Shown: piece after piece, positions 35,804-53,970 of the stretch
Layout: each line of letters begins with the position of its first letter
Numbering within the stretch: the first letter of the stretch is position 1
From: Pyrinomonadales bacterium
GTDB taxonomy: Bacteria > Acidobacteriota > Blastocatellia > Pyrinomonadales > Pyrinomonadaceae
Direction: 5' to 3'
Assembly: GCA_038212935.1 (NCBI GenBank)
Contig: JBBQTV010000002.1
Location: 21,004-85,003 of the forward strand
DNA length: 64,000 bases
Notes under the pieces: model-generated
Databases searched by the model: none
What the model saw: the letters and a program-made list of their open reading frames with translations, nothing else
What the model was told of the DNA's origin: nothing
Made by a program: the position numbers and the translations under genes

Positions 35804-36019
35804 AATGTAAGTTGCGAAATTGTGTATCGCCACGAACCTTCGAAAATTAGGAAGGTAGGGGCTGTGGCGGCTCATTACCCTAGTAACCTGTACCAAAAGT
35901 TGGCCCCATTTGGAACCCGCTGCCATAACGGCGAGTTAACGACCAATGAAGGATTCGGTTCGTGATAAGCAGGATAAGGATCCTTGTAGTCCCGCAAATC
36001 CACGGACTAATTCCATATT

Positions 36020-37288
36020 TCAAAAATATGTAGCAATACGGTCTTGAAACTCACTCCTTGCAATAAGGCCAAGTTGCTCACGTTTCCACATCGGTTTTTT
36101 ATATTCGCAATCGATAAAAACTCCCTTTGTCGAGATTACGTATAAGCCCGCTTGATCCACGACTAAACAACAATTCGTCCGCGACGACGTGAATCTTTCG
36201 GCGCGGCGAGCACCCTTTGTCGGTACAAAGCTGTCGATATTCATATACTTTGCGACCTGACCAAAGATATCCTTTTCCGACAAAATGCTGAGTTTTGCTT
36301 CGCACGGAACCCACAGCCCACTGATTTTTACAAAGTTATCTACAATGCCCGTACTTTCGCCATTACGATAGCATTGACACTCTTCAAGAACCGTTGATCC
36401 CTTGTCTTTTATCGCGCCAAGAAAATGATCAAGCAAGTACGACCGAAGTTGGGCCTCATGGATGAATCGCGTTGCCGATAAGCATGAGATCTCCGCCCAA
36501 TTATCTTTGTCAACGTTGCGAAAGGTACCGTCCCCAAACGCTGCGGTCGAAAGGAACGGAGTGAGTAAATTGTCTTCTGCAAGAAGCGTTCTGATACCTT
36601 TCGCTTCGCGAGTGTAAACCGGCGTGATCGTGTTCTGGCCGATTTTCACATAATCCGCAAACCGTTCCGACGAAAGTGGTGTCTCAAATATCTGGACTTC
36701 GCCTAACGGAGCAAACAGCCTTCCATCAAAATGCTTTTCCGGCGGACCGAAATATTCGGTCGAGCCGGAGACAGACGCACAGCCGAATATTGTGCCCGAG
36801 TACATTTCAGCCTGGCCGGCCGCATGTTCTAAGATCGCGGTCAGTCCACGTTCTTCTGGATAAAGTCTTTTGGCCAATTTCCGCAATTTTTGCGCGTTAA
36901 GGCCACCCCTTTTTGTATGGTAAAAGAATAGAATGTCACCCTCGGTTAGCCATTTGGGGGCAGTCCACGATGTATCGTCGTCCGGAGTGAACCGAAGCAA
37001 GTAATCGAGATCCAGAAAGTTCTCGCCCCGGTCGCTGTTACTATTTAGCATCTCGAAAACGCCGTCAATTGAATTCGGAAATCCAATGCTTGTTATGCAC
37101 GATTGTGCCCATCGCGTTTCAACGCAGCTCTTGGTGCCCATGATTACTTTTCCCTCATCCAACTCGACGGTATGACGCAATGGCGAGCCCGAGTAAGACG
37201 AAGCCTGATCGTCAGCGAAATAGAGTCGCTTGATTAACTGTAGTTGTGCCCGTAGACTTCTCCGATACGAAGTTGGGTTCCTTATCAT
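36020..37288 (-). CDS. uncharacterised protein, possible PUA/EVE-like N-region plus PD-(D/E)xK nuclease-like C-domain; coupled to hsdR
   Basis: ATG lies 3 nt after the hsdR stop. The GDILFFYHTKRG / GTIFGCASVSG blocks are reminiscent of EVE/PUA-like folds. C-terminal FIHEAQLRSYLL...IVDNFV(D317)...VPCEAKL(E330,K332) fits the E..D..ExK nuclease pattern. All tentative. Confidence 0.5.
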   Translation of the reverse strand: MIRNPTSYRRSLRAQLQLIKRLYFADDQASSYSGSPLRHTVELDEGKVIMGTKSCVETRWAQSCITSIGFPNSIDGVFEMLNSNSDRGENFLDLDYLLRFTPDDDTSWTAPKWLTEGDILFFYHTKRGGLNAQKLRKLAKRLYPEERGLTAILEHAAGQAEMYSGTIFGCASVSGSTEYFGPPEKHFDGRLFAPLGEVQIFETPLSSERFADYVKIGQNTITPVYTREAKGIRTLLAEDNLLTPFLSTAAFGDGTFRNVDKDNWAEISCLSATRFIHEAQLRSYLLDHFLGAIKDKGSTVLEECQCYRNGESTGIVDNFVKISGLWVPCEAKLSILSEKDIFGQVAKYMNIDSFVPTKGARRAERFTSSRTNCCLVVDQAGLYVISTKGVFIDCEYKKPMWKREQLGLIARSEFQDRIATYF

Positions 37289-37291
37289 CTT

Positions 37292-40200
37292 CTACACCCA
37301 TGATTCCGACAGCGTCTCGGCTTGCTGAAGGACTAGGTCGATCGCGGCTTCTTGTTTGTCGGGCGGATATTTGTATTTGCGAAGTATATTCTTAACCATA
37401 ATTCGGAGACGGGCACGCACGGTTTCGCGGACGGACCAGTCGACCGTCGTACTACGCCGGAGTTTTTCGGTGAGTTCGATTGCGATCTTTTTCAGGATCT
37501 CATCGCCCAGCTCGCGGACCGATGCCTCGTTATCAGCAAGCGCGTCATAAAAAGCGACCTCATCCGTATTCAGTCCAAGCTTCTCGCCTTCGCTCGCGGC
37601 AGCTTGAAACTCTTTCGCCATCGCCACGAGTTCTTCGATAACCTGCATCGTCTCGATGGCTCGGTTGTGGTACTTATTCAGTGTCGAACTGAGCATCTCG
37701 GAAAACTTCTTGCTCTGGACAATGTTAGTTTTCATTCTGGCTTTGATCTCGTCCTTAAGAAGTCTTTTCAGAAGTTCTACGGCCAGATTTCGTTGAGGCA
37801 TCAGCTTCACCTCTTCGAGAAACTCGTCTGAAAGAATACCGATGTTGGGGCGATCAAGTCCGGCATACGAAAATATATCCAGAACTTCGTCTGATGCTAC
37901 TGCTCGGCTGAGTATCTGTTGGATTAGCAACTCACGCTGCTCATTCTTGTATTGCTTGTTTGATTCTTCGGGTTTACCGATAAACGCTTTCACAGCCTGA
38001 AAGAATGCAATTTCCTCGCGATAGCCGATCGCCTCGTCGAGCGTGCTGCACAAGGCAAAGGACTTCGTAAGAACCGTGACGCTGTCGAAGTACCTCTTCT
38101 TCCGATCGGGCCCTAGACCAAGAATATGGTCGGCGGCCTCTGGCAGTAATGTTATCGCCTCAGTTTCGAAGTCCTGATAATCAAATCCGTGGAACATACC
38201 GCGGATGATCATCATCTGTTCTTCTACTAGAGGAAGAGCTTTCTCGGCTGCGTCATTGTAGAGGTCGCCTTCACCGTCGGCTTCGGTATATTGTTTTAGT
38301 GCCGCTTGCAGCTCGTGGCCGATCCCGATGTAATCAACAACCAGACCGCCATCCTTTTCTTTGAACACACGGTTAACACGCGCTATCGCCTGCATAAGCG
38401 AATGTCCACGCATCGGTTTGTCGATATAGATGGTATGCAGGCTCGGCGCGTCAAAACCAGTGAGCCACATATCGCGAACTATGGCGACTTGGAAATCATT
38501 CTCCGGGTCCTTAAATCTTTTTTCCAGATCTTTCTTAACTAGCTTTGGATAGATGTGAGGCTGCAAACTGGGTTTATCGCTTGATGAGCCCGTCATGATT
38601 ACCTTCAAAACACCCTTAGCCGGATCGGGGTCATGCCAGTCGGGACGGAGAGCAACTATCTCGTCATAAATCCTTACGCAGATGTCGCGGCCCATTGCGA
38701 CAAACATGGCCTTGCCCGGACCGGCTGTTGTCTTCGACATCTCGGTTTGCCGAGCCTCAAAGTGCTTTACAAAATCCGCGGCGATCTTCTTTAGCCTTTG
38801 TTCCGCACCCACGACCTTTTCCAGAGCTGCCCAGCGGCTGTGCGACCGCGCCCGTTCTGTCTCTTCGTCGTCCTCAGTTAGTTCTTCAACCTGTTCGTCA
38901 AGTGTTGGGGCTTCCTCGTCGTTTAATTCGAGCTTCGCAAGCCTATTTTCGTACAGGATCGGCACCGTTGCACCATCTTCCTGAGCCTGCTTCATGTCGT
39001 AGATGTCGATGTAGGTGCCGAAGACGGCCTGCGTGTCCCTTTCGAGCATCGAGATCGGTGTGCCGGTAAACGCGATGAAGGAAGCTTTAGGAAATGCTTC
39101 GTGCAGGTAATGAGCGAAGCCGTATTTTATCTTTCCGGACTTTTGGTCAACCGTCGCGTTCAGGCCATACTGGGTTCTGTGTGCTTCATCCGCGATCACG
39201 ACGATGTTCGAACGGTCAGACAATAGCGGGAACGTTGCTTCATCTTCCAAAAGGCTGAATTTCTGAATTGTCGTAAAGATGATTCCGCCCGAAGGACGCC
39301 CCGCCAGCAGGTCGCGAAGCTCCTGACGCGTTTCCGCTTGCTTCGGAGTCTCCCGCATCAACTCCTTCGCATTCGAAAATGTCGCAAATAGCTGGCCGTC
39401 TAGGTCGTTGCGGTCCGTGACGACAATAATCGTCGGGTTCTTCATTTCCGGGGACGTAATTACCTTTCCGGCATAGAACGCCATCGAAATACTCTTGCCT
39501 GAACCTTGGGTATGCCACGCGACGCCTATCTTTCCTGTCTCGTCCGGCTTTGTAGCCTCAAGCGTTTTTGCAAACGCCTTCTTCACCAGATGAAATTGAT
39601 GATAGGCAGCAATCTTCTTTATCGTTTCTTTCTCTTCTTCAAACAAGACAAAATCGCGGATATACTCGAGCAGAAAACCGCGGCCGAATAGTCCCCGGAT
39701 GAGCGTTTCCGTCTCCTTGCTTTCGCCGAGAGGATCAAGCTGTATTCCGTCGATCGTTCGCCATCGTCCAAAGCGTTCGTAGTCCGCTGTCAGGCTCCCT
39801 ACTCTCGCTTCACGGAGGTCGGCTATCACAAGCAGCTCGTTAAAGGTAAACAGCTCGGGAATCTCAGCCTTATATGTCTGAAGCTGTTTGAAAGAATCGT
39901 AAATCGTCGTATTGATATCCGCCGGGTTTTTCAGCTCGAGAACTGCTATCGGCAAGCCGTTGATAAAGATGATGACATCCGGCCGCTTCGTGCCTTTTGG
40001 ACCCTTTATAGAAAACTGATTGACCGCGAGGAACTCATTGCTTTCGATATTCTCGAAATCGATAATCCGAACGAAGTCCGCTTTCGTTTCATTGTCTTCT
40101 TGGAACGTAACCTTAACGCCATCCCGAAGCTGCCGGTGAAACTCGCGGTTGTTCTGAATAAGCGAAGGAAAGTTCGGACGGGTTATCTGAACAATTGCAT

Positions 40201-40402
40201 CCTCTATCGCAGCCGCCGGAATGTCTAAATTGAACGCCGTCAGCCTTTCGCGCAACCGCCCGAAAAGAACAACCTCCCGATAATCCTTCCGCTCGGCCCT
40301 GTCCGTGTCAGGCGCGATCTCGTAGCCGTTTTCATAAACGTATCCGAGATCGGCCAGAATGCCGAGGAGGTGATTTTCGAACTGTTCTTCGGTTATTTTC
40401 AC
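37292..40402 (-). CDS. hsdR: type I restriction endonuclease subunit R
   Basis: N-terminal nuclease block PDVIIFINGLPIAVLELK. Helicase motifs HTQGSGKS and VVIADEAHRTQ. 1036 aa. GTG start. Confidence 0.9.
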   Translation of the reverse strand: MKITEEQFENHLLGILADLGYVYENGYEIAPDTDRAERKDYREVVLFGRLRERLTAFNLDIPAAAIEDAIVQITRPNFPSLIQNNREFHRQLRDGVKVTFQEDNETKADFVRIIDFENIESNEFLAVNQFSIKGPKGTKRPDVIIFINGLPIAVLELKNPADINTTIYDSFKQLQTYKAEIPELFTFNELLVIADLREARVGSLTADYERFGRWRTIDGIQLDPLGESKETETLIRGLFGRGFLLEYIRDFVLFEEEKETIKKIAAYHQFHLVKKAFAKTLEATKPDETGKIGVAWHTQGSGKSISMAFYAGKVITSPEMKNPTIIVVTDRNDLDGQLFATFSNAKELMRETPKQAETRQELRDLLAGRPSGGIIFTTIQKFSLLEDEATFPLLSDRSNIVVIADEAHRTQYGLNATVDQKSGKIKYGFAHYLHEAFPKASFIAFTGTPISMLERDTQAVFGTYIDIYDMKQAQEDGATVPILYENRLAKLELNDEEAPTLDEQVEELTEDDEETERARSHSRWAALEKVVGAEQRLKKIAADFVKHFEARQTEMSKTTAGPGKAMFVAMGRDICVRIYDEIVALRPDWHDPDPAKGVLKVIMTGSSSDKPSLQPHIYPKLVKKDLEKRFKDPENDFQVAIVRDMWLTGFDAPSLHTIYIDKPMRGHSLMQAIARVNRVFKEKDGGLVVDYIGIGHELQAALKQYTEADGEGDLYNDAAEKALPLVEEQMMIIRGMFHGFDYQDFETEAITLLPEAADHILGLGPDRKKRYFDSVTVLTKSFALCSTLDEAIGYREEIAFFQAVKAFIGKPEESNKQYKNEQRELLIQQILSRAVASDEVLDIFSYAGLDRPNIGILSDEFLEEVKLMPQRNLAVELLKRLLKDEIKARMKTNIVQSKKFSEMLSSTLNKYHNRAIETMQVIEELVAMAKEFQAAASEGEKLGLNTDEVAFYDALADNEASVRELGDEILKKIAIELTEKLRRSTTVDWSVRETVRARLRIMVKNILRKYKYPPDKQEAAIDLVLQQAETLSESWV

Positions 40403-40620: not shown

Positions 40621-42033
40621 TTAGGCCCAATAAGGAACGTAACGGGCATATCGTCTCGAAGCACTTTCAGGATCCTCTAATTTAATTAGGTCCTCGTCAA
40701 CAGCGTTTTTAATAATGCCTGACACGACATCCGCCCTAGATTCAGGCAGATCAAATCGTTCCCTAAGGGTCTGGTTTGTCATGCGTTCATTCATAAGAAA
40801 CTTCAAGCTACAGTGCTGGTAACAGGCTCGAACCTTATCCTTCTTGCTCATATCGCCAAATGGGATATGACCATAAAGAATTGCCGTGAAATGTTTCTCA
40901 CCGTTCCGAAAATCCGGAGCTGGTAGTTGCCACGTCTCCACATAAAGAACGACCTTGTCAATTCCGCTGCCTTGACGTTCACAGACCTTGAGTCTGCGCA
41001 TGATGTCCGCTAAAGTCTCGTTCCGCGATTGATAGCTATCCAGGAGTCGGTTCGGATCAATGGATGAGGGTCCGGGGTTCCCGATTTCCATTCGATCCGA
41101 ATAGATGTCGATTGTTACAAACATCCCCCTCTCATTCAGGTCCTGATGAACGAGAGCGTTAGCGACCAGCTCACGAATAGCTATGTCGGGGTACATCTTC
41201 ACATCTTCTCTGAACGCTTTCCCGATGACTTCGTTGGAGGGAAGACGCGAGTCGATATAGTCGATCAACCCTTCAAAACCGGCAATGTAACCTTTACGTC
41301 CGAAAATATCTGACTTCGTTTTGAGCTTGTTCTTTCCGTCATAAACCGTAACTCGCGCCGCCTTATCCTTAACTGCTTCGAAGCTCTGCAACTCTTTGGC
41401 GAATAACACGGCTCCCAAATTGGTAATGCTATATCCGGAGTCTGAGGACACGATCAGCTTCTCTTCAACAAACCGGTCCATGACCGTCAATCGTGTCGCC
41501 GGATAAGGGAGCTTGAGAAGGTCGAAGTATACCTGGGTATCGAGTAACCTGACGACATCCTCCGCTGATTGGTCCGCGAGAGCGATCTGCGATAGAAAAT
41601 CCGGTTTGCCCTCATCGAAGATCTTACGAAGCTGGTCAGCAGACATCGGCACTAAATCTTCGCCGACCCGCATCAAATAGGCTCCGTCGAGGTTCATAGC
41701 GGTGCCGGGTGGTCGAGGCGGAATATGAAAAATGACGACGCGACCATTTGGATGGGCCACCTCTTCGGCATCAACTCGAATACGAAGCTTATCGAAGATC
41801 TTCGATTTAATATCGTTAATATCGAGGAACGCTCGACTCCCGACAACCCGTCGTGGGTTAGCATCGTTAATCCCGAGAATTAACTTTCCGCCACCTTCGT
41901 TCGAAAGTGCAACACAGTATCGATGAAGTTTGGTTATGTCGTAGTGGTTTTTGGCTTCCTTGAATTCAAGCCTCTCGCCTTCCTCGGACTCCATCCACCT
42001 CCCAAGTTGTTCTATTGTAACCGCCAAATTCAC
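40621..42033 (-). CDS. AlbA_2 (Schlafen-like) DNA-binding domain protein with HATPase_c_4-type C-region
   Basis: ESEEGERLEFKEAKN...ALSNEGGGKLILGI (AlbA_2-type) and IRELVANALVHQD (HATPase_c_4 type). This family is commonly annotated as a putative transcriptional regulator or ATP-binding protein in R-M loci. Confidence 0.7.
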   Translation of the reverse strand: MNLAVTIEQLGRWMESEEGERLEFKEAKNHYDITKLHRYCVALSNEGGGKLILGINDANPRRVVGSRAFLDINDIKSKIFDKLRIRVDAEEVAHPNGRVVIFHIPPRPPGTAMNLDGAYLMRVGEDLVPMSADQLRKIFDEGKPDFLSQIALADQSAEDVVRLLDTQVYFDLLKLPYPATRLTVMDRFVEEKLIVSSDSGYSITNLGAVLFAKELQSFEAVKDKAARVTVYDGKNKLKTKSDIFGRKGYIAGFEGLIDYIDSRLPSNEVIGKAFREDVKMYPDIAIRELVANALVHQDLNERGMFVTIDIYSDRMEIGNPGPSSIDPNRLLDSYQSRNETLADIMRRLKVCERQGSGIDKVVLYVETWQLPAPDFRNGEKHFTAILYGHIPFGDMSKKDKVRACYQHCSLKFLMNERMTNQTLRERFDLPESRADVVSGIIKNAVDEDLIKLEDPESASRRYARYVPYWA

Positions 42034-42079: not shown

Positions 42080-42202
42080 CCCGATTCCTTACGCTTAGCT
42101 CGTTCGCAACGCACTTCGATGTCGCAGCCATTTCGAAAATGTATCCGAGATCGGCCAGAATGCGGGAAGATGATTTTCGAATTGTTCTTCGTTCTTTCGC
42201 AT
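42080..42202 (-). pseudogene. frameshifted remnant of an hsdR 5-prime end (first ~40 codons)
   Basis: 42121..42202 aligns with 40321..40402 (...gtatccgagatcggccagaatgc.g..ga.gatgattttcgaa.tgttcttcg.t..tt..ca.). MRKNEEQFENHL.. compares with MKITEEQFENHL.. . A 1-nt deletion is present. Its ATG lies 19 nt after the HEPN gene stop. Confidence 0.7.
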
Positions 42203-42221: not shown

Positions 42222-43070
42222 TTATTTAACATTCTGGTGAATGTCGTTAAGAGCAGCTTTTAAAACTTGCCAACAAATCTTCGCTGTGTGTTCATCTGGG
42301 CAAAATCCAGACGACAACTGCTGATACGGATGAATATAATTCCTAAAATCTCGGAGCGTGTGGCTGAACTTTTTTACGTCAAGTCCCAGAATACCGAGAT
42401 TATGAGAGACGTCTATGAAATCATTCAGTGTCCATTCATGAAACTGTTTCGTCTTTCCGGAAGTTGCGTCTCTTGGACTAACCGCTGATTGATTGAACTT
42501 CTTTGGATCAGAAGACGCGAGGCCAAGTAGCAAGCCTTCTAAAACACTTCCGCAAAGAAAGATAACTGCGAACGGAGCTTCAGCTTTCAGACATTTCTTT
42601 AATTCCCTTATTCGCCCGTCTAAAATAGTGGAGACTTGCCCGTCAAGTTTCAGCTTTGACAACGGAACTTCGTCAACATCCCCATTTAGGAACTCGTCAA
42701 TCGTTTTCGGTTCCTCCCTTTTCGGCGCGGTCCTTCCTTGCAATCGGCGTGCGGTTCCTAAGCAGCTTTCCAGTAGTGGGGCTGGCGGTATTGAAGAACC
42801 ATTAACGTTCATGTCCGGATCCACAAGAACGGCGATTATGTCTTTTATTAATTTTCCGACACGAGCGTCGCTCTCGGTGTCCCAAAGCAACCGTAACCTT
42901 TTCGCCTTAGATATGCTTGGGCCTCCAAACCTTGCAGATTGAATATCCAGGCCAGTTGAATCGCGAACGAACTGTCGGAATGAGGCATTAGTGAAGTCGA
43001 GGACATAACCTGACTCCATCTCAAAGAGTTTTTCTAATTTAGATTTCTCGACGTTGGTCAAATTGGCCAT
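42222..43070 (-). CDS. AbiJ-like protein: N-terminal AbiJ-NTD-type region plus C-terminal HEPN domain
   Basis: N-terminus LEKLFEMESGYVLDFTNASFRQFV...SISKAKRLRLLW resembles AbiJ N-terminal domains as I recall them. The C-terminus has LRDFRNYIHP (Rx6H / RNxxxH HEPN motif, about aa 240-247). Confidence 0.5.
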   Translation of the reverse strand: MANLTNVEKSKLEKLFEMESGYVLDFTNASFRQFVRDSTGLDIQSARFGGPSISKAKRLRLLWDTESDARVGKLIKDIIAVLVDPDMNVNGSSIPPAPLLESCLGTARRLQGRTAPKREEPKTIDEFLNGDVDEVPLSKLKLDGQVSTILDGRIRELKKCLKAEAPFAVIFLCGSVLEGLLLGLASSDPKKFNQSAVSPRDATSGKTKQFHEWTLNDFIDVSHNLGILGLDVKKFSHTLRDFRNYIHPYQQLSSGFCPDEHTAKICWQVLKAALNDIHQNVK

Positions 43071-43124
43071 TACTGGGTTAAATCTGTTGCGATTATTTCT
43101 TCATGCGCGCTCGCACCGAGTAAA

Positions 43125-44177
43125 CTAGCCATAGAGCTTTTTTAGTGCATTTTCCGTGAATTGCATTGGATCTCCGGCGACTTTATCAATTACTTTGAGG
43201 TTAATTGTTCCAGCGTTTCGGCGGTCCCGAAGAAGCTCGGCGAATGGCACATCTAATGTTTCAAACGTAGGATTAACGACTCGAAGTTCGTTTCCGCCCC
43301 CGGCTTTTAGGAACTTCCTGATGAAATGATTGATGTGGGGGTCACGGAACGAATAACCAATGACCGTAAGGATGTTGGTATTTGCTAGCTGCTCATCCCA
43401 GACGCGAAGTAAATCGAGAAATGGCCCTTCAGTCGTTAGCTTATTCCGTTGACCGAAGATAACCATATTTGTATCGTCGAGAACCATGAATCTCTTCGCC
43501 TCATTGAGGCTCGACTTACTATAAATAATCGGCGACGGCATCGCGTCGCCAGCTAGAGAAGTGCCGGGATCTGTCCAGTACCAATAGCACGAACCGTGAA
43601 GCTTTATTAATTTTATTGTGTGATTGTTATACTGAATCGCCCCATTCTTTTCCCATGCTTTGATGCCTGTATCCCAAGAAATATTCCGATTCTCGCATAA
43701 CAATTCAACTGCGTTGTCGTAGTTAAGCGTCGCGACAAAAAGATTATTCTGCCTTTGAGCGAGATTAAGAATTGGGGCTAAGTATTCGACCCGGTTTGCA
43801 TCTTTTATAGTGGTCAACTCTTCAAGCATCCCTGTCATTCGATAGCGTATCTCTTTGAAATGGGCTGGAGCTTCAGGAATTGCGGCAAGACCAGGCTTCC
43901 ATTCTTCGACAAATCGTGCGATCTCGAGACTGTCCCGTTCCTCCAGAAGCAATAGCGCATTGTAGAGCGATTCTACATCGACACAATCTTCTTTGGGATT
44001 GAGCTTCTGCTCGTGTTCGATTAGTGTGTCATTGACGAAATTCAGTGCATCTCGAAATCTCGCGTTCCGATCGTCGGAATTGAACTTCTCGACAATGTGT
44101 TTCGACATCTTCCAAGCGCTCGGAACGCCGGCTTCAACGGATGCACCGGCGGCGAACAACAACATTTCATTTCCCAT
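43125..44177 (-). CDS. SIR2-like (SIR2_2 family) protein
   Basis: LLFAAGASVEAGVPSAW Rossmann start and IKLIKLHGS block. 350 aa. Starts 9 nt after the hsdS stop. Confidence 0.7.
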   Translation of the reverse strand: MGNEMLLFAAGASVEAGVPSAWKMSKHIVEKFNSDDRNARFRDALNFVNDTLIEHEQKLNPKEDCVDVESLYNALLLLEERDSLEIARFVEEWKPGLAAIPEAPAHFKEIRYRMTGMLEELTTIKDANRVEYLAPILNLAQRQNNLFVATLNYDNAVELLCENRNISWDTGIKAWEKNGAIQYNNHTIKLIKLHGSCYWYWTDPGTSLAGDAMPSPIIYSKSSLNEAKRFMVLDDTNMVIFGQRNKLTTEGPFLDLLRVWDEQLANTNILTVIGYSFRDPHINHFIRKFLKAGGGNELRVVNPTFETLDVPFAELLRDRRNAGTINLKVIDKVAGDPMQFTENALKKLYG

Positions 44178-44186
44178 AATGTTCCA

Positions 44187-45476
44187 TTAAACGACGTGTT
44201 CCCTTTCCTCGGCCTTATCTACTCTTAGTTTGCCCGAAATTAGGCGGGGCAATAACGATTCGCGAGTCTGACATAGCGATTGAATTTGATCGATATTCAT
44301 TTGCGCTAGTGAATAGATCGGACCAACTATCTCGTTGAAAGTCTCAAGGAGGCAATCCGATGGGATTACAATCGGAATATTGAGAGTGCTTTCAGGTTTG
44401 ACTCTTTGATGACTACCAGACGTTCCGGTTACGTGCTGCTGAAAACTGGAAATAATTTCATCGCTTCTCAATAGGCTATTCAAAAACGACCAATTCACGG
44501 CTTGACGAGTTTCGTACAAAATAAACTCCGTTGAAGCAATACACCGGCTATCCGCAACCGGGAATACGGTCCAAGCTCGAAATATGCGAGGGTTAAGCTT
44601 TGAAACCAAAACCGAATTTCCTTGTATAAGGAACTTGTTGCTTAGAATTGTCGACCCGAGCTCCCTCCTCGGATGCTTACCATCATCAAACGCGGGAATG
44701 CTGAAATGGTGAAACTCTTCATCAGGAAATTTGCCGGGTGAAACGGAATCCTTGGAAATCCTGGCAATATCCGCAACCGTTCCTCCGACCCACCCTTTCG
44801 GAAAGCCGTTTTCGAAGTCGGAGGGGAAGAGTTTGGCTATATCGGGGGAGGCGGAGGTTGAGGGGCGGTTTTCTTTGATGGCGTGGACGGGTTCAAAGTC
44901 TACAAACCAAGCCTTAAACAAAGCCCGGGCCATCGCCTCCAAAGTCGCATTCATCCGCCGGTTAAGCTCGATCTTGTCCTCAATTGCATTTGCAAAATCC
45001 GCAAGCCTCTTCTGTTCCTCAAGAGGTGGGATCGAAACGGGTAAGTTCGTAAGTGTTTCGGTGTTCAGGCGTCCCGTGCCATGACCGGCCGAATCCACCG
45101 AATTAAGTAATGAAGTTTTATTCGCTACAAGTAGGTAAGGAAGAAATTCCGGATGAAGACCTTCCTGTGGGATTACAGCCTTTACATCTTGGTTGAAGGC
45201 CGAGGGTCGTCGCAATCTGCAAATCGGAAGGTCGTTATGTAGAGTCATTCCTCGAACAAGTATGAGGGTCGATCTTGCGGGGACAATTTTTGCTTTTGCA
45301 GCACCAGCTTCAGTAAGGTGATCCTCGGAATCCTCAACCCAAAAGGTCTTCATATCCTTGGCCGATACCCATGGAATATTGCCGTTCCAAAAGTCGGTTC
45401 GAGATTTGGACGGTGTACCGCCGGATTGCAGCTTTACGTAATCGCCGAGTTTCCCCGGTGGCCATTCAGATGCCAT
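44187..45476 (-). CDS. hsdS: type I restriction-modification specificity subunit S
   Basis: KLGDYVKLQSGGTPSKSRTDFWNGNIPWVSAKDM, plus a second TRD and conserved helical spacers. Overlaps hsdM by 11 nt. Confidence 0.85.
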   Translation of the reverse strand: MASEWPPGKLGDYVKLQSGGTPSKSRTDFWNGNIPWVSAKDMKTFWVEDSEDHLTEAGAAKAKIVPARSTLILVRGMTLHNDLPICRLRRPSAFNQDVKAVIPQEGLHPEFLPYLLVANKTSLLNSVDSAGHGTGRLNTETLTNLPVSIPPLEEQKRLADFANAIEDKIELNRRMNATLEAMARALFKAWFVDFEPVHAIKENRPSTSASPDIAKLFPSDFENGFPKGWVGGTVADIARISKDSVSPGKFPDEEFHHFSIPAFDDGKHPRRELGSTILSNKFLIQGNSVLVSKLNPRIFRAWTVFPVADSRCIASTEFILYETRQAVNWSFLNSLLRSDEIISSFQQHVTGTSGSHQRVKPESTLNIPIVIPSDCLLETFNEIVGPIYSLAQMNIDQIQSLCQTRESLLPRLISGKLRVDKAEEREHVV

Positions 45477-47043
45477 ATCCTATCGTCCCTAGGTGTGACC
45501 TAATCTTTTCCTCTAAATGCCGATTTTCCACAAATTGGGCGCTTAGATCACTAGTTAGTCGGGCCATCTTCTCTTCAAACCCCTCATCGTCGTCTTCTAT
45601 TTCTGCGGCTCCGACATACCGTCCCGGAGTAAGAACGTAATCGTGCGAACGCACCTCATCAAGTCCAACAGATTTGCAGAAACCTGGAACATCTTCGTAG
45701 GCAAGCCTGTCACTTTCGCTTGCAGTACTGACAGAAGCGTCTTCGTCCTGTTTCCAGGAATGATAGGTTGTGGCGATTTTTTGAATATCTTCATCATCGA
45801 AAACGCGGTTGACGCGGTTTTCGAGGCGGCCTAGTTTACGGGCGTCGATGAAGAGGATCTCGCCTTTTCGGCGTCCTTTGTTCTTATCGAGAAACCATAG
45901 GCACGCCGGGATTTGGGTGTTGAAGAAAAGCTGTGCGGGAAGGGCCACCATGCATTCCACGGCGTCCTGTTCGATCATTTCCTTGCGGATCGTTCCTTCG
46001 CTGTTCTGCGAGGACGACATCGAACCGTTGGAAAGGACCACGCCGGCACGTCCGTTCGCGGCGAGGTGGTAGTAAATGTGCTGAAGCCAAGCGTAGTTTG
46101 CATTTCCCGCCGGGGGCGTTCCGAATTGCCATCGCGGATCGCCTTCGAGCTGTGCGTTCCACCAATCGGAAACGTTGAACGGCGGATTCGCCATTATGTA
46201 ATTGGCGCGTAGGTCGGGGTGCTGGTTGCGAAGAAATGTATCTGCCGGTTCCTTGCCCAAATTAAAGTCCATCCCGCGGATCGCAAGGTTCATAGCCACC
46301 AGCCGCCACGTCGTCGGGTTTGATTCCTGTCCGTAAATGGAAATATCGCCAAACCGCCCGCCGTGCGATTCCATGAACTTTTCCGACTGAACAAACATTC
46401 CGCCTGATCCGCAGCAGGGATCGTAAACCTTGCCGGAATGCGGTGCGAGAACTTCGACTAGTACTTTTACAACGGATGCAGGAGTGTAGAACTGCCCACC
46501 CTTTTTACCTTCTGCATTGGCGAACTGGCCGAGGAAGTATTCGTAAACCTCACCCAGAATATCTTTCGCATTATGCCCGTTGCCGTTGAAGCCGATCTTC
46601 GAGATAAGATCGACGAGTTCGCCGAGTTTGCCCGGCTCAAGCTCGGTTCGCGCAAAGCGTTTGTCCAGCAAACCTTTCAGTCGCGGATTCTCTTTCTCGA
46701 TCTCAACAAGTGCATCGTCGATGTATTTGCCGAGGATGGGCTGCTTTGCCCGTTCACGAATCCATTCCCAACGCGATAACTCCGGCACCCAAAAGACATT
46801 TGCTGCCGTATAGTAATCGCGCTCTTCGAAATCTTTGACTCGGTCAGTCTCGTCTTCAATGAAGTATTCATCGCCAGGATCAGAAAAACGTCGTTCAAGC
46901 TCCGTTCGATGTTCACCAAACGAGTCTGAAATATATTTCAGGAAGATCAACCCGAGGACGATGTGCTTGTACTCGGCGGCATCCATATTGGAGCGGAGCT
47001 TATCGGCCGCGGCCCAGAGTGTCTTCTTTATTTCGTTATCCAT
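45466..47043 (-). CDS. hsdM: type I restriction-modification methyltransferase subunit M
   Basis: HsdM N-domain (LWAAADKLRSNMDAAEYKHIVLGLIFLKYISD), SAM motif VYDPCCGSGGM, catalytic IMANPPFN. ATG at 47043 (alternative GTG at 47073). Confidence 0.9.
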   Translation of the reverse strand: MDNEIKKTLWAAADKLRSNMDAAEYKHIVLGLIFLKYISDSFGEHRTELERRFSDPGDEYFIEDETDRVKDFEERDYYTAANVFWVPELSRWEWIRERAKQPILGKYIDDALVEIEKENPRLKGLLDKRFARTELEPGKLGELVDLISKIGFNGNGHNAKDILGEVYEYFLGQFANAEGKKGGQFYTPASVVKVLVEVLAPHSGKVYDPCCGSGGMFVQSEKFMESHGGRFGDISIYGQESNPTTWRLVAMNLAIRGMDFNLGKEPADTFLRNQHPDLRANYIMANPPFNVSDWWNAQLEGDPRWQFGTPPAGNANYAWLQHIYYHLAANGRAGVVLSNGSMSSSQNSEGTIRKEMIEQDAVECMVALPAQLFFNTQIPACLWFLDKNKGRRKGEILFIDARKLGRLENRVNRVFDDEDIQKIATTYHSWKQDEDASVSTASESDRLAYEDVPGFCKSVGLDEVRSHDYVLTPGRYVGAAEIEDDDEGFEEKMARLTSDLSAQFVENRHLEEKIRSHLGTIGYGI

Positions 47044-47145
47044 AGGGAAATGAAAGCTCTGCGATTCTAGCACGGCTTCCAGATTTGAGTGAATCTAATG
47101 ATAAGGGCATCCCAAACCCGGTCCGCTGCAAAACCCTTTTCGCTT

Positions 47146-50070
47146 CTAGCTGGCAAATAGTTCCGTAATGAACTCTTTCGACATTTCGTCTTCCGCAGGA
47201 AGCGGGGTGAGGAAATCTTTTGCGAGAGCCATCCTTCGACGAAGCAATTTGTCGAGCTTTTGGTCAAACGTTGCGAAAGTCTTGTCCGTGGGATCTTTTG
47301 CTATTAAATGGTAGACGTGCACGTCCTTTTCTTGACCGATCCGAAATACACGGTCGGTTGCCTGAGCTTCTTTTGCCGGATTCCACCATCTTCCATAATG
47401 AAAAACATGGTTCGCCTCGGTTAAAGTAAGTCCCATGCCAGCAACGTCAGGAGAAAGAATAAGGACATCAAACCCTTGTGACTCGCGGAAACGGGCAAGT
47501 ATAGCCTTTCTCGTTTTCGGCTGCTCTTCCGATGAAGCCCCCCTTTTTGTGGAGCCATTGACGATATTCACCGATAGTCCAAACCTATGTTTCAATACGT
47601 CCGCGAGTATCTGCTGCATGTCGAGCGTTCTAACAAAGATCAGGGCTTTTTCACGCAGCCGTTTTATTTCCACGAGTTTCATGATGAGGACACTTAGTTT
47701 GTGACAATCGGCGATCGCATTTTCCGGATCTGGCAGTTGAAAAGTTGGAACCAATGCGGGGTGTTGATACACACGCAAAAACTCATTGATTAGTTTAAAC
47801 GGATGATTGCCTTCGCCGCCTACCGCTGCTCGAGTCAGCAATGACATGTGGTAGTCCCGTTGCGATGTCATCAATTCGCAGTCGAGCTGATGTTCATATT
47901 TTCGTGGAAGGTCGCTAAGCTCCTCTTTGTCACGTCTTAAAAGGTATGAACTCGGAGTATAAAAGAGCAACCTTTCTTTGAGAGCTTGAAGAGCAACACT
48001 GATCTCAGTCTCCGCCTCCAGGGGCTTTTCATATTTGGCTCGAAAGTCCTGTGCGCTACCAAGCTTTCCTGGTTCTACAAAATCGAAGATGTTCCACACA
48101 TCAGAAATCTTGGTCTCGACGGGTGTTCCCGTACATGCAACGCGAAATGTTGCTGAGAGACTCTTGAGGGCATGTGAGACCTTTGTACTCGGCGTTTTAT
48201 ATTCTTGAGCTTCGTCGGTAACGATCACTGACCAGTCAGTCTTTGCAAATGAGTGTTGGTAATTTACTACCGTCTCGTAATTAGTAATGACGACGCGATG
48301 TTTGTGCAATTCTTTGATGTCGAGTGTCGCCTCCCCGATCTTTGTCTCGCGCCCAGCAGCCCTTTTCAAACGGTTTAAGTTATTCCCTCGCAGCGTCAAA
48401 CACGGCCAGAATATTGAGCCTTTTTCAGCAAAGAAAAGCTTCATGTCGTTGATCCAGGTTTCACTCTCAACGAGGATTACCGGTGCCACGATCAAAATGG
48501 GTTTCCATGGTGGCACTTCAGAATTATTTGTGTCTGAAAGTACTCCTCCGCGTTCTATTAACGAAGCGAGAAAAGCAAGTAACTGAAGCGTCTTCCCTAA
48601 TCCCATATCATCTGCAAGAAGGCAGCCAGAGCGGCCGAGTTCAAAATTTCGCTGGAGCCACGCAATGCCGCGCTTTTGATGGTCTTTCAGAACAGTGGTT
48701 GGAAGTAACGATTGGGGTAGTTCGGGATCGGTTAATGGTTCTTCGGAATATCCTTCTTCCTGAGGGCTTTCAAACTCGACCTCGCCTTCATTCGTAAGGA
48801 TTAGGAGATACTTTCCACCGGTTTTTTCGTTCTTTTCGGATCGTTTACCCTCCGTCGGCAGAAACTTGTCCGTCAGTTCTTGGAACGCCCTCACAAACGT
48901 CTGATTAAGCGGGATAGTCTTACCATCGAATTCAACAAATCCAGTCCCTTCGTGTCTTGCGGTTTCGACTCGGGACGAAAGTTCCTTTATCTCCTCAATC
49001 GACCCAAAGCTTACTTCGGTTTCGGCGCCATCAGGATATGTAAATCTGATACCTGCGGTGAATCTGTCGCTTAGATTTGAAGCGCCGAGATCGTCGAATA
49101 TCCCAGTGACGCTTTTCTGCATGAACGGTTTCGAGACGAATGGAAAATCGCCTATCCCCTGGATGCGTTCACTAAACCCTTTCAGAGAAACGGCACCATT
49201 GACTCCGTCGAAAAGTGCTTCCGGATCGCTAAGGATCTTTGCTTTCTCCGCACCGCCGAGATGTTGTGCTGTAGAGATCCTGCCAAAGACCTCCTTAACT
49301 TCCGGGGTCAACAAAACACTGGCGTTCCTGCCGTCTTTCGTTTTTACATCGTATTGAGGCAGGTCCGGATTGCGTTTGAATTTTTGAGCAAAGTCTTCTT
49401 CGTCGAGCGTTTCACTAGTAGGAGCTAGGCTTATACGGTTTCCCTCTTCCTCGAGAACCTGTATGCCGATCTCTAAGGGTTCAATGATCTCTCGTCCCGT
49501 TGTAAAACCATCGGTCTCGGCTCCCGCAGCTTCCGCCAATGTTTTAATTTCACCGAAAAATCGAAACGCATCTGGGCTTTGCTTGTGGGCCGGTGAAAGA
49601 TTGTTGAATCTATTGACTTCGGAGAGGAGTTTGAAGGTCTGTAAATCGAACAAATATACTTGTTCGCCGTACCTACAGAAACACCCCTTTATTTCAGGTT
49701 CGACCTCTTCACCGTTCCGAAAGAAGCCCAGGGAGAATGCGCTGTTTGGGGCACCCAAGAAGCTTCTCATTCTTATTTTTATGGAGAACGGGGATCGTTC
49801 TAAAAGATCAGCGAAGGCAGTTATTTCATGTCCGGGAAGATCTGCAAAGTCCTGGAAACTAATTCGCAGATCTTCCCCTTGGACAACTGCGAGATCAAGC
49901 TCAAGAATTTGAGTTATGAGTATCGGAAGCACCCGCCCGAGCATCGACTCGCTCGAACTTTCCCACTCAGAGTCAAACGCAATACGACCCGCCCCGCCGA
50001 TCCAAACATACTCATCAGACGCTAAGATTTCTATTTCCGATACAGGTTGTGGAATTATCCATTCATCCAT
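47146..50070 (-). CDS. zorD: ZorD-like SNF2-family helicase (type I Zorya)
   Basis: SNF2 motifs LLADDMGLGKTLQ, VIVTDEAQEYK and RWWNPAKEAQATDRVFRIGQ. Last gene of a MotA/MotB-like four-gene operon. Start taken at MDEWIIP, 5 nt after the zorC stop. Confidence 0.75.
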   Translation of the reverse strand: MDEWIIPQPVSEIEILASDEYVWIGGAGRIAFDSEWESSSESMLGRVLPILITQILELDLAVVQGEDLRISFQDFADLPGHEITAFADLLERSPFSIKIRMRSFLGAPNSAFSLGFFRNGEEVEPEIKGCFCRYGEQVYLFDLQTFKLLSEVNRFNNLSPAHKQSPDAFRFFGEIKTLAEAAGAETDGFTTGREIIEPLEIGIQVLEEEGNRISLAPTSETLDEEDFAQKFKRNPDLPQYDVKTKDGRNASVLLTPEVKEVFGRISTAQHLGGAEKAKILSDPEALFDGVNGAVSLKGFSERIQGIGDFPFVSKPFMQKSVTGIFDDLGASNLSDRFTAGIRFTYPDGAETEVSFGSIEEIKELSSRVETARHEGTGFVEFDGKTIPLNQTFVRAFQELTDKFLPTEGKRSEKNEKTGGKYLLILTNEGEVEFESPQEEGYSEEPLTDPELPQSLLPTTVLKDHQKRGIAWLQRNFELGRSGCLLADDMGLGKTLQLLAFLASLIERGGVLSDTNNSEVPPWKPILIVAPVILVESETWINDMKLFFAEKGSIFWPCLTLRGNNLNRLKRAAGRETKIGEATLDIKELHKHRVVITNYETVVNYQHSFAKTDWSVIVTDEAQEYKTPSTKVSHALKSLSATFRVACTGTPVETKISDVWNIFDFVEPGKLGSAQDFRAKYEKPLEAETEISVALQALKERLLFYTPSSYLLRRDKEELSDLPRKYEHQLDCELMTSQRDYHMSLLTRAAVGGEGNHPFKLINEFLRVYQHPALVPTFQLPDPENAIADCHKLSVLIMKLVEIKRLREKALIFVRTLDMQQILADVLKHRFGLSVNIVNGSTKRGASSEEQPKTRKAILARFRESQGFDVLILSPDVAGMGLTLTEANHVFHYGRWWNPAKEAQATDRVFRIGQEKDVHVYHLIAKDPTDKTFATFDQKLDKLLRRRMALAKDFLTPLPAEDEMSKEFITELFAS

Positions 50071-50075
50071 AGTCG

Positions 50076-51365
50076 CTAGGGCCGGATTCCATTTTGGGCA
50101 AGCGCCTGTTCTACAACTGGTTGCCAATTCCCTTGATGCGCTTTGCTATAAACTTCAAATCTCTTCAGTTCGCCATCCGTGAATCGCTTGGTACGAAAGA
50201 TATCAGGTAGGAAGCGTCTTTTTTCGCTACTGTTAAAAATATATACCTTTCCCACTTCGTTGAATTCAACGACCAGAGCTCTCCCGAAATCCAATATGAA
50301 AGCACTTTGTGACCCATCTTTCTTTCCAAAATGCTTACTCCCGTCACGCAACTCAGAGTTAAGTCGATAGCGATCCGTATCAGTAAGCAGCGGGCGAGAC
50401 ACTGGCGTGTTTGAGCGAACGTAACGTAGCCAAAAATCCGCTCTTTTATGACGATCATTTGTCATTACCTTCTTAAAGAAGAAAACAATGTCCTCCCTAG
50501 TCAATTGCTGAAGGACCTTCTTTTTGGAATCCTCCATCCCAATCCAACTGGCGGGGCGAAGTCTTGGATCTCCAAGACGGTTTACATCGCTTACGACGTA
50601 ATCAACGAGTCGAGCTTTAACATCGCTTGAATCATCGAAAGCCTTAGACATTACCGCGCCATTCACATGCTTTTTGAACGCCCCGATCTCATGCTTGTCC
50701 CAGCCAAGAATCTGATACACAAAGTAGTCGAGTGTCGCGGGGTTATCGAGTTTATTGGCGCATGATTGAGCACATTCAGAAACTACCTCTCGAAAGAACT
50801 GGGTATCTTCGAACAACCGGAAGTCCGCAATGGAATGTTCCAACGGCATTTTCTTCTTGAGGAATTCTTCAGCCAATCTCGTGACCGAGTCAGCGAACAG
50901 CAGAAGCGGAAGATTTTCCTGCCATTTTTTGAGAACTCCGTTCGGCCCGCTATAGGTCATGATGGCTTCTCTAAGTCCCAAGAACTGAGGTAGGTGCTGC
51001 ACGTCCGCCCATCTTGAGTGAAAGCTGTAAACTAAACCTTGTATTGATTTAGCCGAGTTCCTGGTGCGCTCGGAATTTACCATCAGATTCCAAAACCGGT
51101 TCTCTACAGCAATCTTCGGATACCACGATAAGTTTCGCATTACCCTTGATGAAACCTGCTCAGTTCGTCCAGCTATATATGCTTCCCAATCCCGAATATG
51201 AGAATCCGACGGCTTCTGCGGTTTAGCTATGGCATCAATAGTATCTATTGCCTTCGCTAATGCAGGCAGGTTGAAATTAGAGAAATTTCGATTGTGACGC
51301 GCGGCGGTATCGTTGAACCCGCGATTCGCAAACGTCAAGTTTTGAAGCCCTTCTCTTAAACTCAT
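50076..51365 (-). CDS. zorC: ZorC-like protein (assigned by position)
   Basis: About 430 aa between zorB- and zorD-like genes with 4-5 nt gaps. I did not recognise a diagnostic motif, so the call rests on synteny. Confidence 0.55.
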   Translation of the reverse strand: MSLREGLQNLTFANRGFNDTAARHNRNFSNFNLPALAKAIDTIDAIAKPQKPSDSHIRDWEAYIAGRTEQVSSRVMRNLSWYPKIAVENRFWNLMVNSERTRNSAKSIQGLVYSFHSRWADVQHLPQFLGLREAIMTYSGPNGVLKKWQENLPLLLFADSVTRLAEEFLKKKMPLEHSIADFRLFEDTQFFREVVSECAQSCANKLDNPATLDYFVYQILGWDKHEIGAFKKHVNGAVMSKAFDDSSDVKARLVDYVVSDVNRLGDPRLRPASWIGMEDSKKKVLQQLTREDIVFFFKKVMTNDRHKRADFWLRYVRSNTPVSRPLLTDTDRYRLNSELRDGSKHFGKKDGSQSAFILDFGRALVVEFNEVGKVYIFNSSEKRRFLPDIFRTKRFTDGELKRFEVYSKAHQGNWQPVVEQALAQNGIRP

Positions 51366-51369
51366 GAAT

Positions 51370-52065
51370 TCATTTTTCTTCCACGGCAGACACGGCTTTG
51401 TTAACGACCTTTTCTTCATGTGAGCGAACACGTATCTTGAAGACTACGCGTCGGCTCTTTGCCGAATCCTCAGTCCCATTGTCATCTCGATATGGATCAA
51501 CGCTTCCCCTTCCCGTCGCAGAAACAAGGTCGAGAAAACAAGGCCGTGTAATTTGCTCGTTATCAGTTTTCTGAGCGTCTGCCTTACCCAATATACCTAG
51601 AGTCTCCCTAACGACCGACATTGAACGCTGTTGACTGAGCGGCAGATTTATTTCATCCCCACCTGATTTGTCTGCATGCCCTTCAACGACGATAGAACTG
51701 ACCTCCTGCCTAAACTCGCCGGAACACAAAGTCTCCGCCAACTTGGGAGTGATTCGTTGCAAAAAAACAAGACCCTGATCCGGAATGTCCGCCTTGTTAA
51801 CTGGGAAATTAAGCAGGCCCTCGGGCACCACGACTATTAGACTCAGCGGGTCGTCCTTGTCGTCCTTGAGTTCAAGCCCTTTGTACTCCACAAGCTCTTG
51901 ATTCAATGTTTCTCTGAGTTTAGCGAGAATGTTTTCTCGAGATTGTCGGACCTCTTGTTGTTTGTTGTTCATAGTGGCAACAAGCAGCAATATAAAAATG
52001 ACCGCCAAGGAGGTCATCAAGTCTGTCATCGAGCTTGAGAGGCCCGAGTTATTGTCTGTTGCCAT
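51370..52065 (-). CDS. zorB: ZorB-like MotB/OmpA-family stator subunit
   Basis: MotB-type N-terminus SSMTDLMTSLAVIFILLLV (Asp before TM) and OmpA-like block VVEGHADKSGGDEINLPLSQQRSMSV. Overlaps zorA by 17 nt. Confidence 0.8.
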   Translation of the reverse strand: MATDNNSGLSSSMTDLMTSLAVIFILLLVATMNNKQQEVRQSRENILAKLRETLNQELVEYKGLELKDDKDDPLSLIVVVPEGLLNFPVNKADIPDQGLVFLQRITPKLAETLCSGEFRQEVSSIVVEGHADKSGGDEINLPLSQQRSMSVVRETLGILGKADAQKTDNEQITRPCFLDLVSATGRGSVDPYRDDNGTEDSAKSRRVVFKIRVRSHEEKVVNKAVSAVEEK

Positions 52066-53941: not shown

Positions 53942-53970
53942 TATATTGTGCAATTAACATTTCGAATAGA

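Follow-up and report, generated by a model that had tools for sequence, protein, structure and literature searches.

A SIR2 gene and a HEPN gene as probable separate cargo in the hsdS–hsdR gap of a Pyrinomonadales type I restriction-modification operon

When two genes for predicted antiphage effectors lie side by side between hsdS and hsdR of a type I restriction-modification (R-M) operon, do they form one defence system, or are they separate passengers of that operon? The question is raised by a stretch of 64,000 nucleotides (nt) from a Pyrinomonadales bacterium (GenBank assembly GCA_038212935.1, contig JBBQTV010000002.1, positions 21,004 to 85,003), hereafter the window, in which a gene for a small SIR2 protein is followed by a gene for a protein of 282 amino acids (aa) with a C-terminal HEPN domain. 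A first-pass annotation had proposed that the two genes make up an undescribed two-gene abortive-infection system wired into the operon. Our analysis favours a different reading, to which we assign a probability of about three in four: a complete type I operon, hsdM-hsdS-...-hsdR, would have gained three independent single-gene modules in its hsdS–hsdR gap, a known cargo slot, and the SIR2 and 282-aa genes would be two of these separately mobile modules, their adjacency being a product of stacking.

Co-occurrence of the SIR2 and 282-aa genes

We surveyed the best 80 of 582 genome loci containing a homologue of the 282-aa protein, together with 84 SIR2 loci, whose proteins are mostly only 28–40% identical to the SIR2 protein of the window. 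A hidden Markov model (HMM) built from 120 SIR2 relatives had no match in any of the 81 loci carrying a 282-aa homologue, and an HMM of the 282-aa family had none in the 84 SIR2 loci. Most loci had flanks long enough to be informative: in the 282-aa set, at least 1.1 kb of upstream sequence was present in 68 of 80 genome loci, and in the SIR2 set, at least 0.9 kb of downstream sequence was present in 62 of 84 loci. The nearest relatives of each gene are paired otherwise. The closest 282-aa homologue (81% identity, locus L081) is preceded by a DUF3644 gene, and its 3.2-kb contig carries no SIR2 gene. The SIR2 homologue with 76% identity (L082) lies in an operon with the order hsdM-hsdS-SIR2-GmrSD-hsdR, while the one with 64% identity (L083) lies in hsdM-hsdS-SLFN_AlbA_2-SIR2-Mrr-hsdR. 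Both of these operons belong to the same lineage as that of the window, with HsdM 82–84% and HsdR 80–86% identical to the window proteins. Thus, the proposal that the two genes act as one system did not survive the comparison. (The DUF3644 protein preceding the 81% homologue, at L081:196-1161, represents another HEPN-related Pfam family, which is said to include AbiJ-NTD2 sequences wrongly [2013 HEPN paper, PMC3710099].)

Either gene can also be the sole occupant of the hsdS–hsdR gap, SIR2 in L098 and the 282-aa gene in L005, L008, L010, L032, L067 and L069. Altogether, the 282-aa gene was found between hsdS and hsdR in 28 of the 80 genome loci and in 5 more that are partial owing to contig ends, and it sits between hsdM and hsdS in L027 and L033. 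In 47 of the 80 loci no type I genes of this family are seen; in five loci the 282-aa gene lies directly downstream of an MmeI-like methyltransferase gene, and elsewhere it is found by itself, with integrases, reverse transcriptases or housekeeping genes for neighbours.

The arrangement is also not new. HEPN genes, including DUF4145 genes, in R-M operons were described in 2013, when a second line of defence resembling that of PrrC was proposed for at least 16 HEPN clades (Anantharaman et al. 2013, PMC3710099), and genes lodged in BREX, DISARM and type I R-M loci have been surveyed systematically under the heading "guilt by embedding" (Payne et al. 2024 preprint, bioRxiv 10.1101/2024.01.29.577857). 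Like the loci of that survey, the window has defence genes of unrelated kinds lying among those of a type I R-M operon.

The operon and its cargo slot

The features of the locus are listed in Table 1. The minus strand carries, in this order, hsdM, hsdS, SIR2, the 282-aa gene, an hsdR stub, a 470-aa gene, an intact hsdR and a 422-aa open reading frame (ORF). HsdM, HsdS and HsdR are all full length, with complete Pfam domain sets (all five HsdR domains in the case of the resident hsdR) and PADLOC matches, as expected of a type I R-M system. The hsdM and hsdS genes overlap by 11 nt, and hsdS ends in a TAA stop at 44189-44187. The location of the SIR2 and HEPN genes between hsdS and hsdR was confirmed, and the spacings in the first-pass annotation were reproduced exactly: the SIR2 ATG is 9 nt past the hsdS stop, the ATG of the 282-aa gene 54 nt past the SIR2 stop, and the ATG of the hsdR-like stub 19 nt past the stop of the 282-aa gene. 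The earlier description lacked the third embedded gene and the intact hsdR downstream of the stub. Since these follow, the operon is not truncated at that point.

Table 1. Features of the operon, the embedded proteins and the flanking genes. All positions are in the numbering of the 64,000-nt window.
Feature	Positions	Strand	Description
hsdM	45466..47073	-	535 aa methyltransferase subunit; Pfam HsdM_N and N6_Mtase (E = 7.5e-114); PADLOC MTase_I 4.6e-187
hsdS	44187..45476	-	429 aa specificity subunit; Pfam Methylase_S; PADLOC Specificity_I 8e-73
SIR2 gene	43125..44177	-	350 aa; predicted NAD+ hydrolase; SIR2_2 domain only
282-aa gene	42222..43070	-	N-terminal modular domain and C-terminal HEPN domain
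N-terminal modular domain of 282-aa protein	42735..43070	-	Residues 1-112; mostly helical in AlphaFold2 (AF2) model, pLDDT ~90
C-terminal HEPN domain of 282-aa protein, DUF4145-like	42225..42668	-	Residues 135-282
Predicted HEPN catalytic motif R240-D-F-R-N-Y-I-H247 (Rx6H)	42330..42353	-	Based on residue conservation
hsdR 5' stub, frameshifted	42141..42202	-	ATG at 42202; homology ends at 42141
Third embedded gene	40621..42033	-	470 aa; Pfam SLFN_AlbA_2 (5.5e-14) and HATPase_c_4 (2.3e-20)
Intact hsdR	37292..40402	-	1036 aa; Pfam HSDR_N, SWI2_SNF2, T1R_D3-like, T1RH-like_C; PADLOC REase_I 1155 bits
422-aa ORF	36020-37288	-	Begins 3 nt past hsdR stop; contains a C-E-A-K segment
GmrSD-like gene	33725-35926	-	733 aa; downstream of type I operon; PADLOC Orf5 (2e-180) and HEC-06; C-terminal region matches PDC-S18
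Zorya type I set (ZorA, ZorB, ZorC, ZorD)	47146-53953	-	Complete; ends 72 nt upstream of hsdM, same strand
RmuC-like gene	54063-55562		Beyond the Zorya set

A single transcription unit is plausible for the operon, and gaps of 188 and 218 nt within it could house internal promoters. Consensus scans for promoters and terminators gave nothing above shuffled sequences. The G+C content of the cargo genes was 0.42–0.48, versus 0.48–0.56 for most segments of hsdM and hsdR.

The stub had been read as an hsdR remnant, which proved correct: positions 42141-42191 match nt 12-63 of the resident hsdR at 47 of 52 nt (90%; E = 9e-13), with a frame-breaking deletion of 1 nt. It is one of several such duplicates of the hsdR 5' end, 30–149 nt long and 88–97% identical to the resident hsdR, that lie exactly at cargo-gene boundaries in type I operons. 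A stub also follows the 282-aa homologue in L054 (L054:10849-10997, 149 nt, 88%) and L075 (L075:3823-3871), and stubs follow SIR2 in L082 (L082:11072-11102, 31 nt, 97%) and L083 (L083:11040-11069). The presence of a stub directly after SIR2 in the last two operons suggests that SIR2 once abutted hsdR there. The positions of the stubs fit a gain of cargo in steps, through recombination of type I operons with one another close to the start of hsdR, and cargo may be lost by the same route. The sequence CATCT is common to the stubs of the window, L082 and L083, whereas the resident hsdR genes read CACCT in two cases and CGTGT in the other, which hints at a common origin of these stubs. A further stub was considered within the 54-nt spacer between SIR2 and the 282-aa gene; the spacer resembles the L082 stub weakly (shuffle p = 0.02, compared with p = 0.22–0.32 for two other references), and we treat this candidate as not shown.

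Across the surveyed loci, the hsdS–hsdR gap holds RhuM-like, Fic, ImmA-like protease, reverse transcriptase, Schlafen/AlbA_2 and four-helix-bundle genes, as judged from the sequences rather than from profile matches. In L059 and L064, genes resembling the third embedded gene of the window occupy the same slot, flanked by the 282-aa homologue on one side and hsdR on the other, and in L083 an SLFN_AlbA_2 gene lies between hsdS and SIR2. The 470-aa protein of the window matches no NCBIfam model.

The embedded proteins and their surroundings

The assignment of the first embedded protein to SIR2_2 stands, with a Pfam match at E = 3.4e-11 (43.9 bits versus a cutoff of 24.5). The best PADLOC match was the model for SIR2 associated with pAgo (Aga_SIR2, 1.5e-34), and the nearest solved sequences, reached by weak profile matches, were three PDB chains named SIR2 family or SIR2-like (8yhx, 8w9l and 8j4u). 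In an alignment of 27 SIR2 relatives, the motifs GAGAS, TLNYD (N152-Y-D) and KLHGS (H194-G-S) were invariant. From what is known of ThsA, DSR2 and SIR2-HerA, we take GAGAS, N152 and H194 to be the NAD-binding and catalytic Asn and His positions. The protein thus resembles the SIR2 NADases of defence systems (ThsA, DSR1/DSR2, SIR2-HerA, SIR2-APAZ/pAgo) in its SIR2_2 fold and in the conserved N and H; however, those proteins carry SLOG, APAZ or a large C-terminal sensor, whereas in the 350 residues of the window protein Pfam found the SIR2 domain alone, and SLOG, APAZ and a large C-terminal region are lacking. Among the 17 flanking proteins scanned with PADLOC, none was matched by a HerA, pAgo or ThsB model. 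The defining partner or fused sensor of the named SIR2 systems (Thoeris, SIR2-HerA, SPARSA and DSR) was accordingly not found in the protein or its PADLOC-scanned neighbours, and the score against the NCBIfam model SIR2_antiphage (43 bits) was far below the cutoff of 500.

Some SIR2 homologues are labelled Acidobacteriota (Pyrinomonadaceae) and one 282-aa homologue is labelled Chloracidobacterium, with identities of only 39–55%. SIR2 relatives of about 50% identity occur in a conserved three-gene block with no hsd genes nearby (L088:3568-6743, L089:6662-9829 and L092:6667-9839). The proteins flanking SIR2 in this block, of about 436 and 260 aa, have no Pfam match, and the smaller one contains a D...E-L-K segment. 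The block may be a separate SIR2-containing system. Its 260-aa gene, which follows SIR2, was considered as a distant homologue of the 282-aa gene and rejected (hhalign probability 0.04).

The 282-aa protein belongs to a large family, with 4566 homologues at E ≤ 1e-3. Leaving fragments aside, most of these have 264–290 aa, and identity is about 50% across Bacteroidota, Acidobacteriota, Patescibacteria, Proteobacteria and archaea. Any name given to them in the sources is "hypothetical protein", and the window protein had no match at normal thresholds in Pfam, NCBIfam or PADLOC. The HEPN motif RDFRNYIH noted earlier at the C-terminus is conserved throughout an alignment of 40 sequences from many phyla and archaea, in which R240, F242, R243, N244, I246, H247 and P248 were invariant and position 241 was D or E. 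It conforms to the described HEPN pattern, Rx4-6H close to the end of helix 3 with R followed by a polar residue (PMC3710099), through R240-D241-x5-H247. Pfam DUF4145, which belongs to the HEPN clan (PMC3710099), matched 34 of the 40 family members at E ≤ 1 (best 2.2e-5), and a precomputed match to PF13643 was present in one homologue.

The fold was examined in a model of residues 135-282 (pLDDT 91.8, pTM 0.87), which has helices at 10-28 and 32-53 of the domain, then an insert (54-95), short helices as far as 120 and a final helix (126-147), in keeping with HEPN domains, which are four-helix up-and-down bundles whose helices 2 and 3 are separated by an insert. The motif lies on the short helices ahead of the long last helix, a position that fits the published description (PMC3710099). 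When this domain model was compared with the PDB in Foldseek, the top 11 matches were all HEPN proteins, including HepT, ST0689, TT1696, AF0298 and a cyanobacterial HEPN toxin, with target-normalised TM of 0.41–0.62 and probabilities up to 0.97. The full-length model gave only weak, diluted HEPN matches, and the domain-only model was needed. A sequence search of the PDB with the protein and its family profile returned only chance coiled-coil matches to vimentin. Since a single small fold family was recovered exclusively in the structural comparison, together with the motif and the profile matches, the HEPN assignment is sound, and the protein can be described as a modular N-terminal domain joined to a DUF4145-type HEPN domain, a putative RNase.

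A profile of the N-terminal domain (residues 1-112) matched 2525 representative proteins. The domain is N-terminal in nearly all of the 150 proteins listed, which range from 87 to 666 aa, and in 14 of 20 sampled proteins it is directly followed by a TIR-family domain; SLOG, FGE-sulfatase or EAD7 domains are added in some. Among proteins P0249-P0397, two seemingly carry the domain twice. Because it precedes different suicide effectors, the domain is a swappable N-terminal module, an architecture that has been described for AbiJ N-terminal domains (PMC3710099). The domain itself has no Pfam match, and AbiJ-related Pfam models matched neither the window protein at E ≤ 10 nor 40 relatives at E ≤ 1. 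To our knowledge, Pfam has no model of AbiJ-NTD1 or NTD2. Thus, the label "AbiJ-like" given to this N-terminus is correct in kind, in that the protein has a modular domain as in AbiJ-type proteins, but membership of AbiJ itself is not established.

Two described groups of proteins are close to the 282-aa protein. The DUF4145 family found in R-M operons in 2013 shares its DUF4145-type HEPN domain, its R...H motif and its location. In that family, the HEPN domain is fused to AbiJ-NTD1 or DpnII/MboI-NTD, similar to the 282-aa protein in having a mostly helical N-terminal domain of about 100–140 aa; however, the same paper lists TIR fusions for AbiJ-NTD2, 3 and 5 and not for NTD1, whereas the N-terminal domain of the 282-aa protein is mostly fused to TIR elsewhere. 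RAZR (PD-T7-4), a zinc finger joined to a DUF4145 HEPN RNase, causes abortive infection through RNA cleavage, and its catalytic R and H are needed for defence (Nature 2026, PMC13017515). Like the 282-aa protein, RAZR is a single protein with a non-catalytic N-terminal domain ahead of a DUF4145-type HEPN domain, but the 282-aa protein has no zinc finger, and the motif is spaced differently (R146...H154 in RAZR, R240...H247 here). RAZR is absent from the listed Foldseek structural matches and is not described as embedded in R-M operons.

The operon is set in a defence island, as judged by PADLOC, with ZorABCD, a GmrSD-like gene and an RmuC-like gene. The 422-aa ORF that follows hsdR had no match in Pfam, NCBIfam or PADLOC and may be a further operon-linked defence gene. 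Neither of the two window families matched the PDC and HEC models of PADLOC-DB 2.0.0, apart from generic SIR2 models.

Back-up modules, guards or partners

According to the stacking model that we prefer, type I restriction would be the first line of defence and the embedded genes independent back-up modules. The SIR2 protein would hydrolyse NAD+ when triggered and thereby deplete it. The 282-aa protein would be a latent HEPN RNase, with an Rx6H active site formed by a dimer, that aborts infection by cutting RNA; its N-terminal module would sense a phage factor or control assembly, and so release RNA cleavage (compare RAZR and Anantharaman et al.). The trigger could be a phage factor that the N-terminal domain detects, as in RAZR, or failed restriction, as in PrrC. 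The Schlafen/AlbA_2-HATPase_c_4 protein would be the third module.

Several points weigh against this model. The tight spacing and shared strand of SIR2 and the 282-aa gene fit co-expression, and the SIR2 protein must be regulated by something, for which a neighbour is a natural candidate, as it has no sensor domain of its own. The sampled loci also leave room for a rare conserved pairing elsewhere. As regards the HEPN domain, the window protein itself reached DUF4145 only at E = 0.13 (12.8 bits versus a cutoff of 23.1), and the Foldseek E-values were individually weak, at 0.3–1.6 and all above 0.1.

Among the alternatives, a guard arrangement resembling that of PrrC is the most probable, although we consider it doubtful. 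Here, the Hsd complex would keep the SIR2 protein, the HEPN protein or both inactive, and they would fire when an anti-restriction factor disables Hsd. PrrC (of EcoprrI) and RloC provide the model, being latent RNases with a HEPN catalytic domain encoded among the hsd genes of type I operons, a precedent that has been extended to the HEPN clades mentioned above. The genes are placed as one might expect of such guards: SIR2 starts 9–27 nt past hsdS in the window, L082, L098, L108 and L123, and the 282-aa gene is no more than 45 nt from the hsdS match in 20 of its 28 embedded loci. Of the 282-aa genes associated with MmeI-like methyltransferases, those of L051 and L073 are also followed by a helicase gene and so lie between the two, while those of L006, L079 and L080 directly follow the methyltransferase gene. 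However, PrrC has an ABC-ATPase N-terminal domain and belongs to a distinct HEPN clade; the 282-aa protein has no homology to it, and no ABC-ATPase or PrrC model was matched in the Pfam, PADLOC and NCBIfam scans. Physical control by the R-M complex, shown for PrrC, would be a hypothesis for the 282-aa protein. Moreover, PrrC-like coupling is not required: more than half of the 282-aa family, unlike PrrC and RloC, lies outside type I operons, in several cases among housekeeping genes, and the SIR2 relatives of about 50% identity are found in the three-gene block described above.

A more specific form of this idea, which we regard as unlikely, is suggested by the hsdS–SIR2 junction, where the 9-nt gap is kept in the window and in the orthologous L082. 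The SIR2-only protein would then be a resident guard of one type I clade, held off by Hsd and depleting NAD+ once restriction is disabled, with the 282-aa protein as a second guard. The slot would have grown by recombination at the hsdR start-codon region, leaving the stubs as scars.

It is very unlikely that SIR2 forms a system with whichever nuclease follows it, be it HEPN in the window, GmrSD in L082, Mrr in L083 or the 260-aa protein in L088-L092. A gene for a known or suspected nuclease does directly follow SIR2 in every well-resolved close relative; however, these partners have unrelated folds, proteins of the GmrSD family are self-sufficient single-gene systems (BrxU, HEC-05/06; PMC11411939), GmrSD or Mrr is divided from SIR2 by an hsdR stub, SIR2 stands alone in L098, and nucleases are simply the commonest cargo of the slot.

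The least probable is the arrangement first proposed, a true two-gene abortive-infection system in which one protein is the sensor and the other the executor, or both fire upon failed restriction: two genes 54 nt apart on one strand of one operon, a SIR2 protein lacking a sensor and a 282-aa protein with a candidate sensor domain would suit it, but the HMMs found no co-occurrence in either direction, the nearest homologues on either side are partnered differently, each gene is the sole insert in some type I operons, and the stubs of L082 and L083 suggest that a partnerless SIR2 once stood next to hsdR. A proven example of an obligate pair inserted in this way is TgvAB, a two-gene system embedded in a type I operon of Vibrio cholerae (PMC11411939), whereas the SIR2 and 282-aa genes are separable.

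Since the proposed system is not there, the locus should not be catalogued as a two-gene system. What remains is useful yet incremental, and the leads are the family in which one N-terminal domain is joined to HEPN or TIR, the SIR2-only resident and the hsdR stubs. The SIR2 and 282-aa families both remain uncharacterised. The very widespread 282-aa family has thousands of bacterial and archaeal members but is covered by neither a Pfam nor a PADLOC model; its proteins can now be interpreted as an N-terminal module with a DUF4145-type HEPN domain, a putative RNase, and in about 40% of the sampled genomes the gene lies inside a type I operon. That the module is common to many TIR proteins suggests one sensor or assembly unit for different suicide effectors. 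The small SIR2-only protein recurs right after hsdS in one type I clade, which raises the question of its switch; were it a resident guard, it would represent PrrC-like logic with an NADase in place of the RNase. Finally, the hsdR 5' stubs at cargo boundaries are a sequence footprint of cargo acquisition, and growth of the slot by recombination, if true, would amount to a mechanism of cargo exchange for type I operons.

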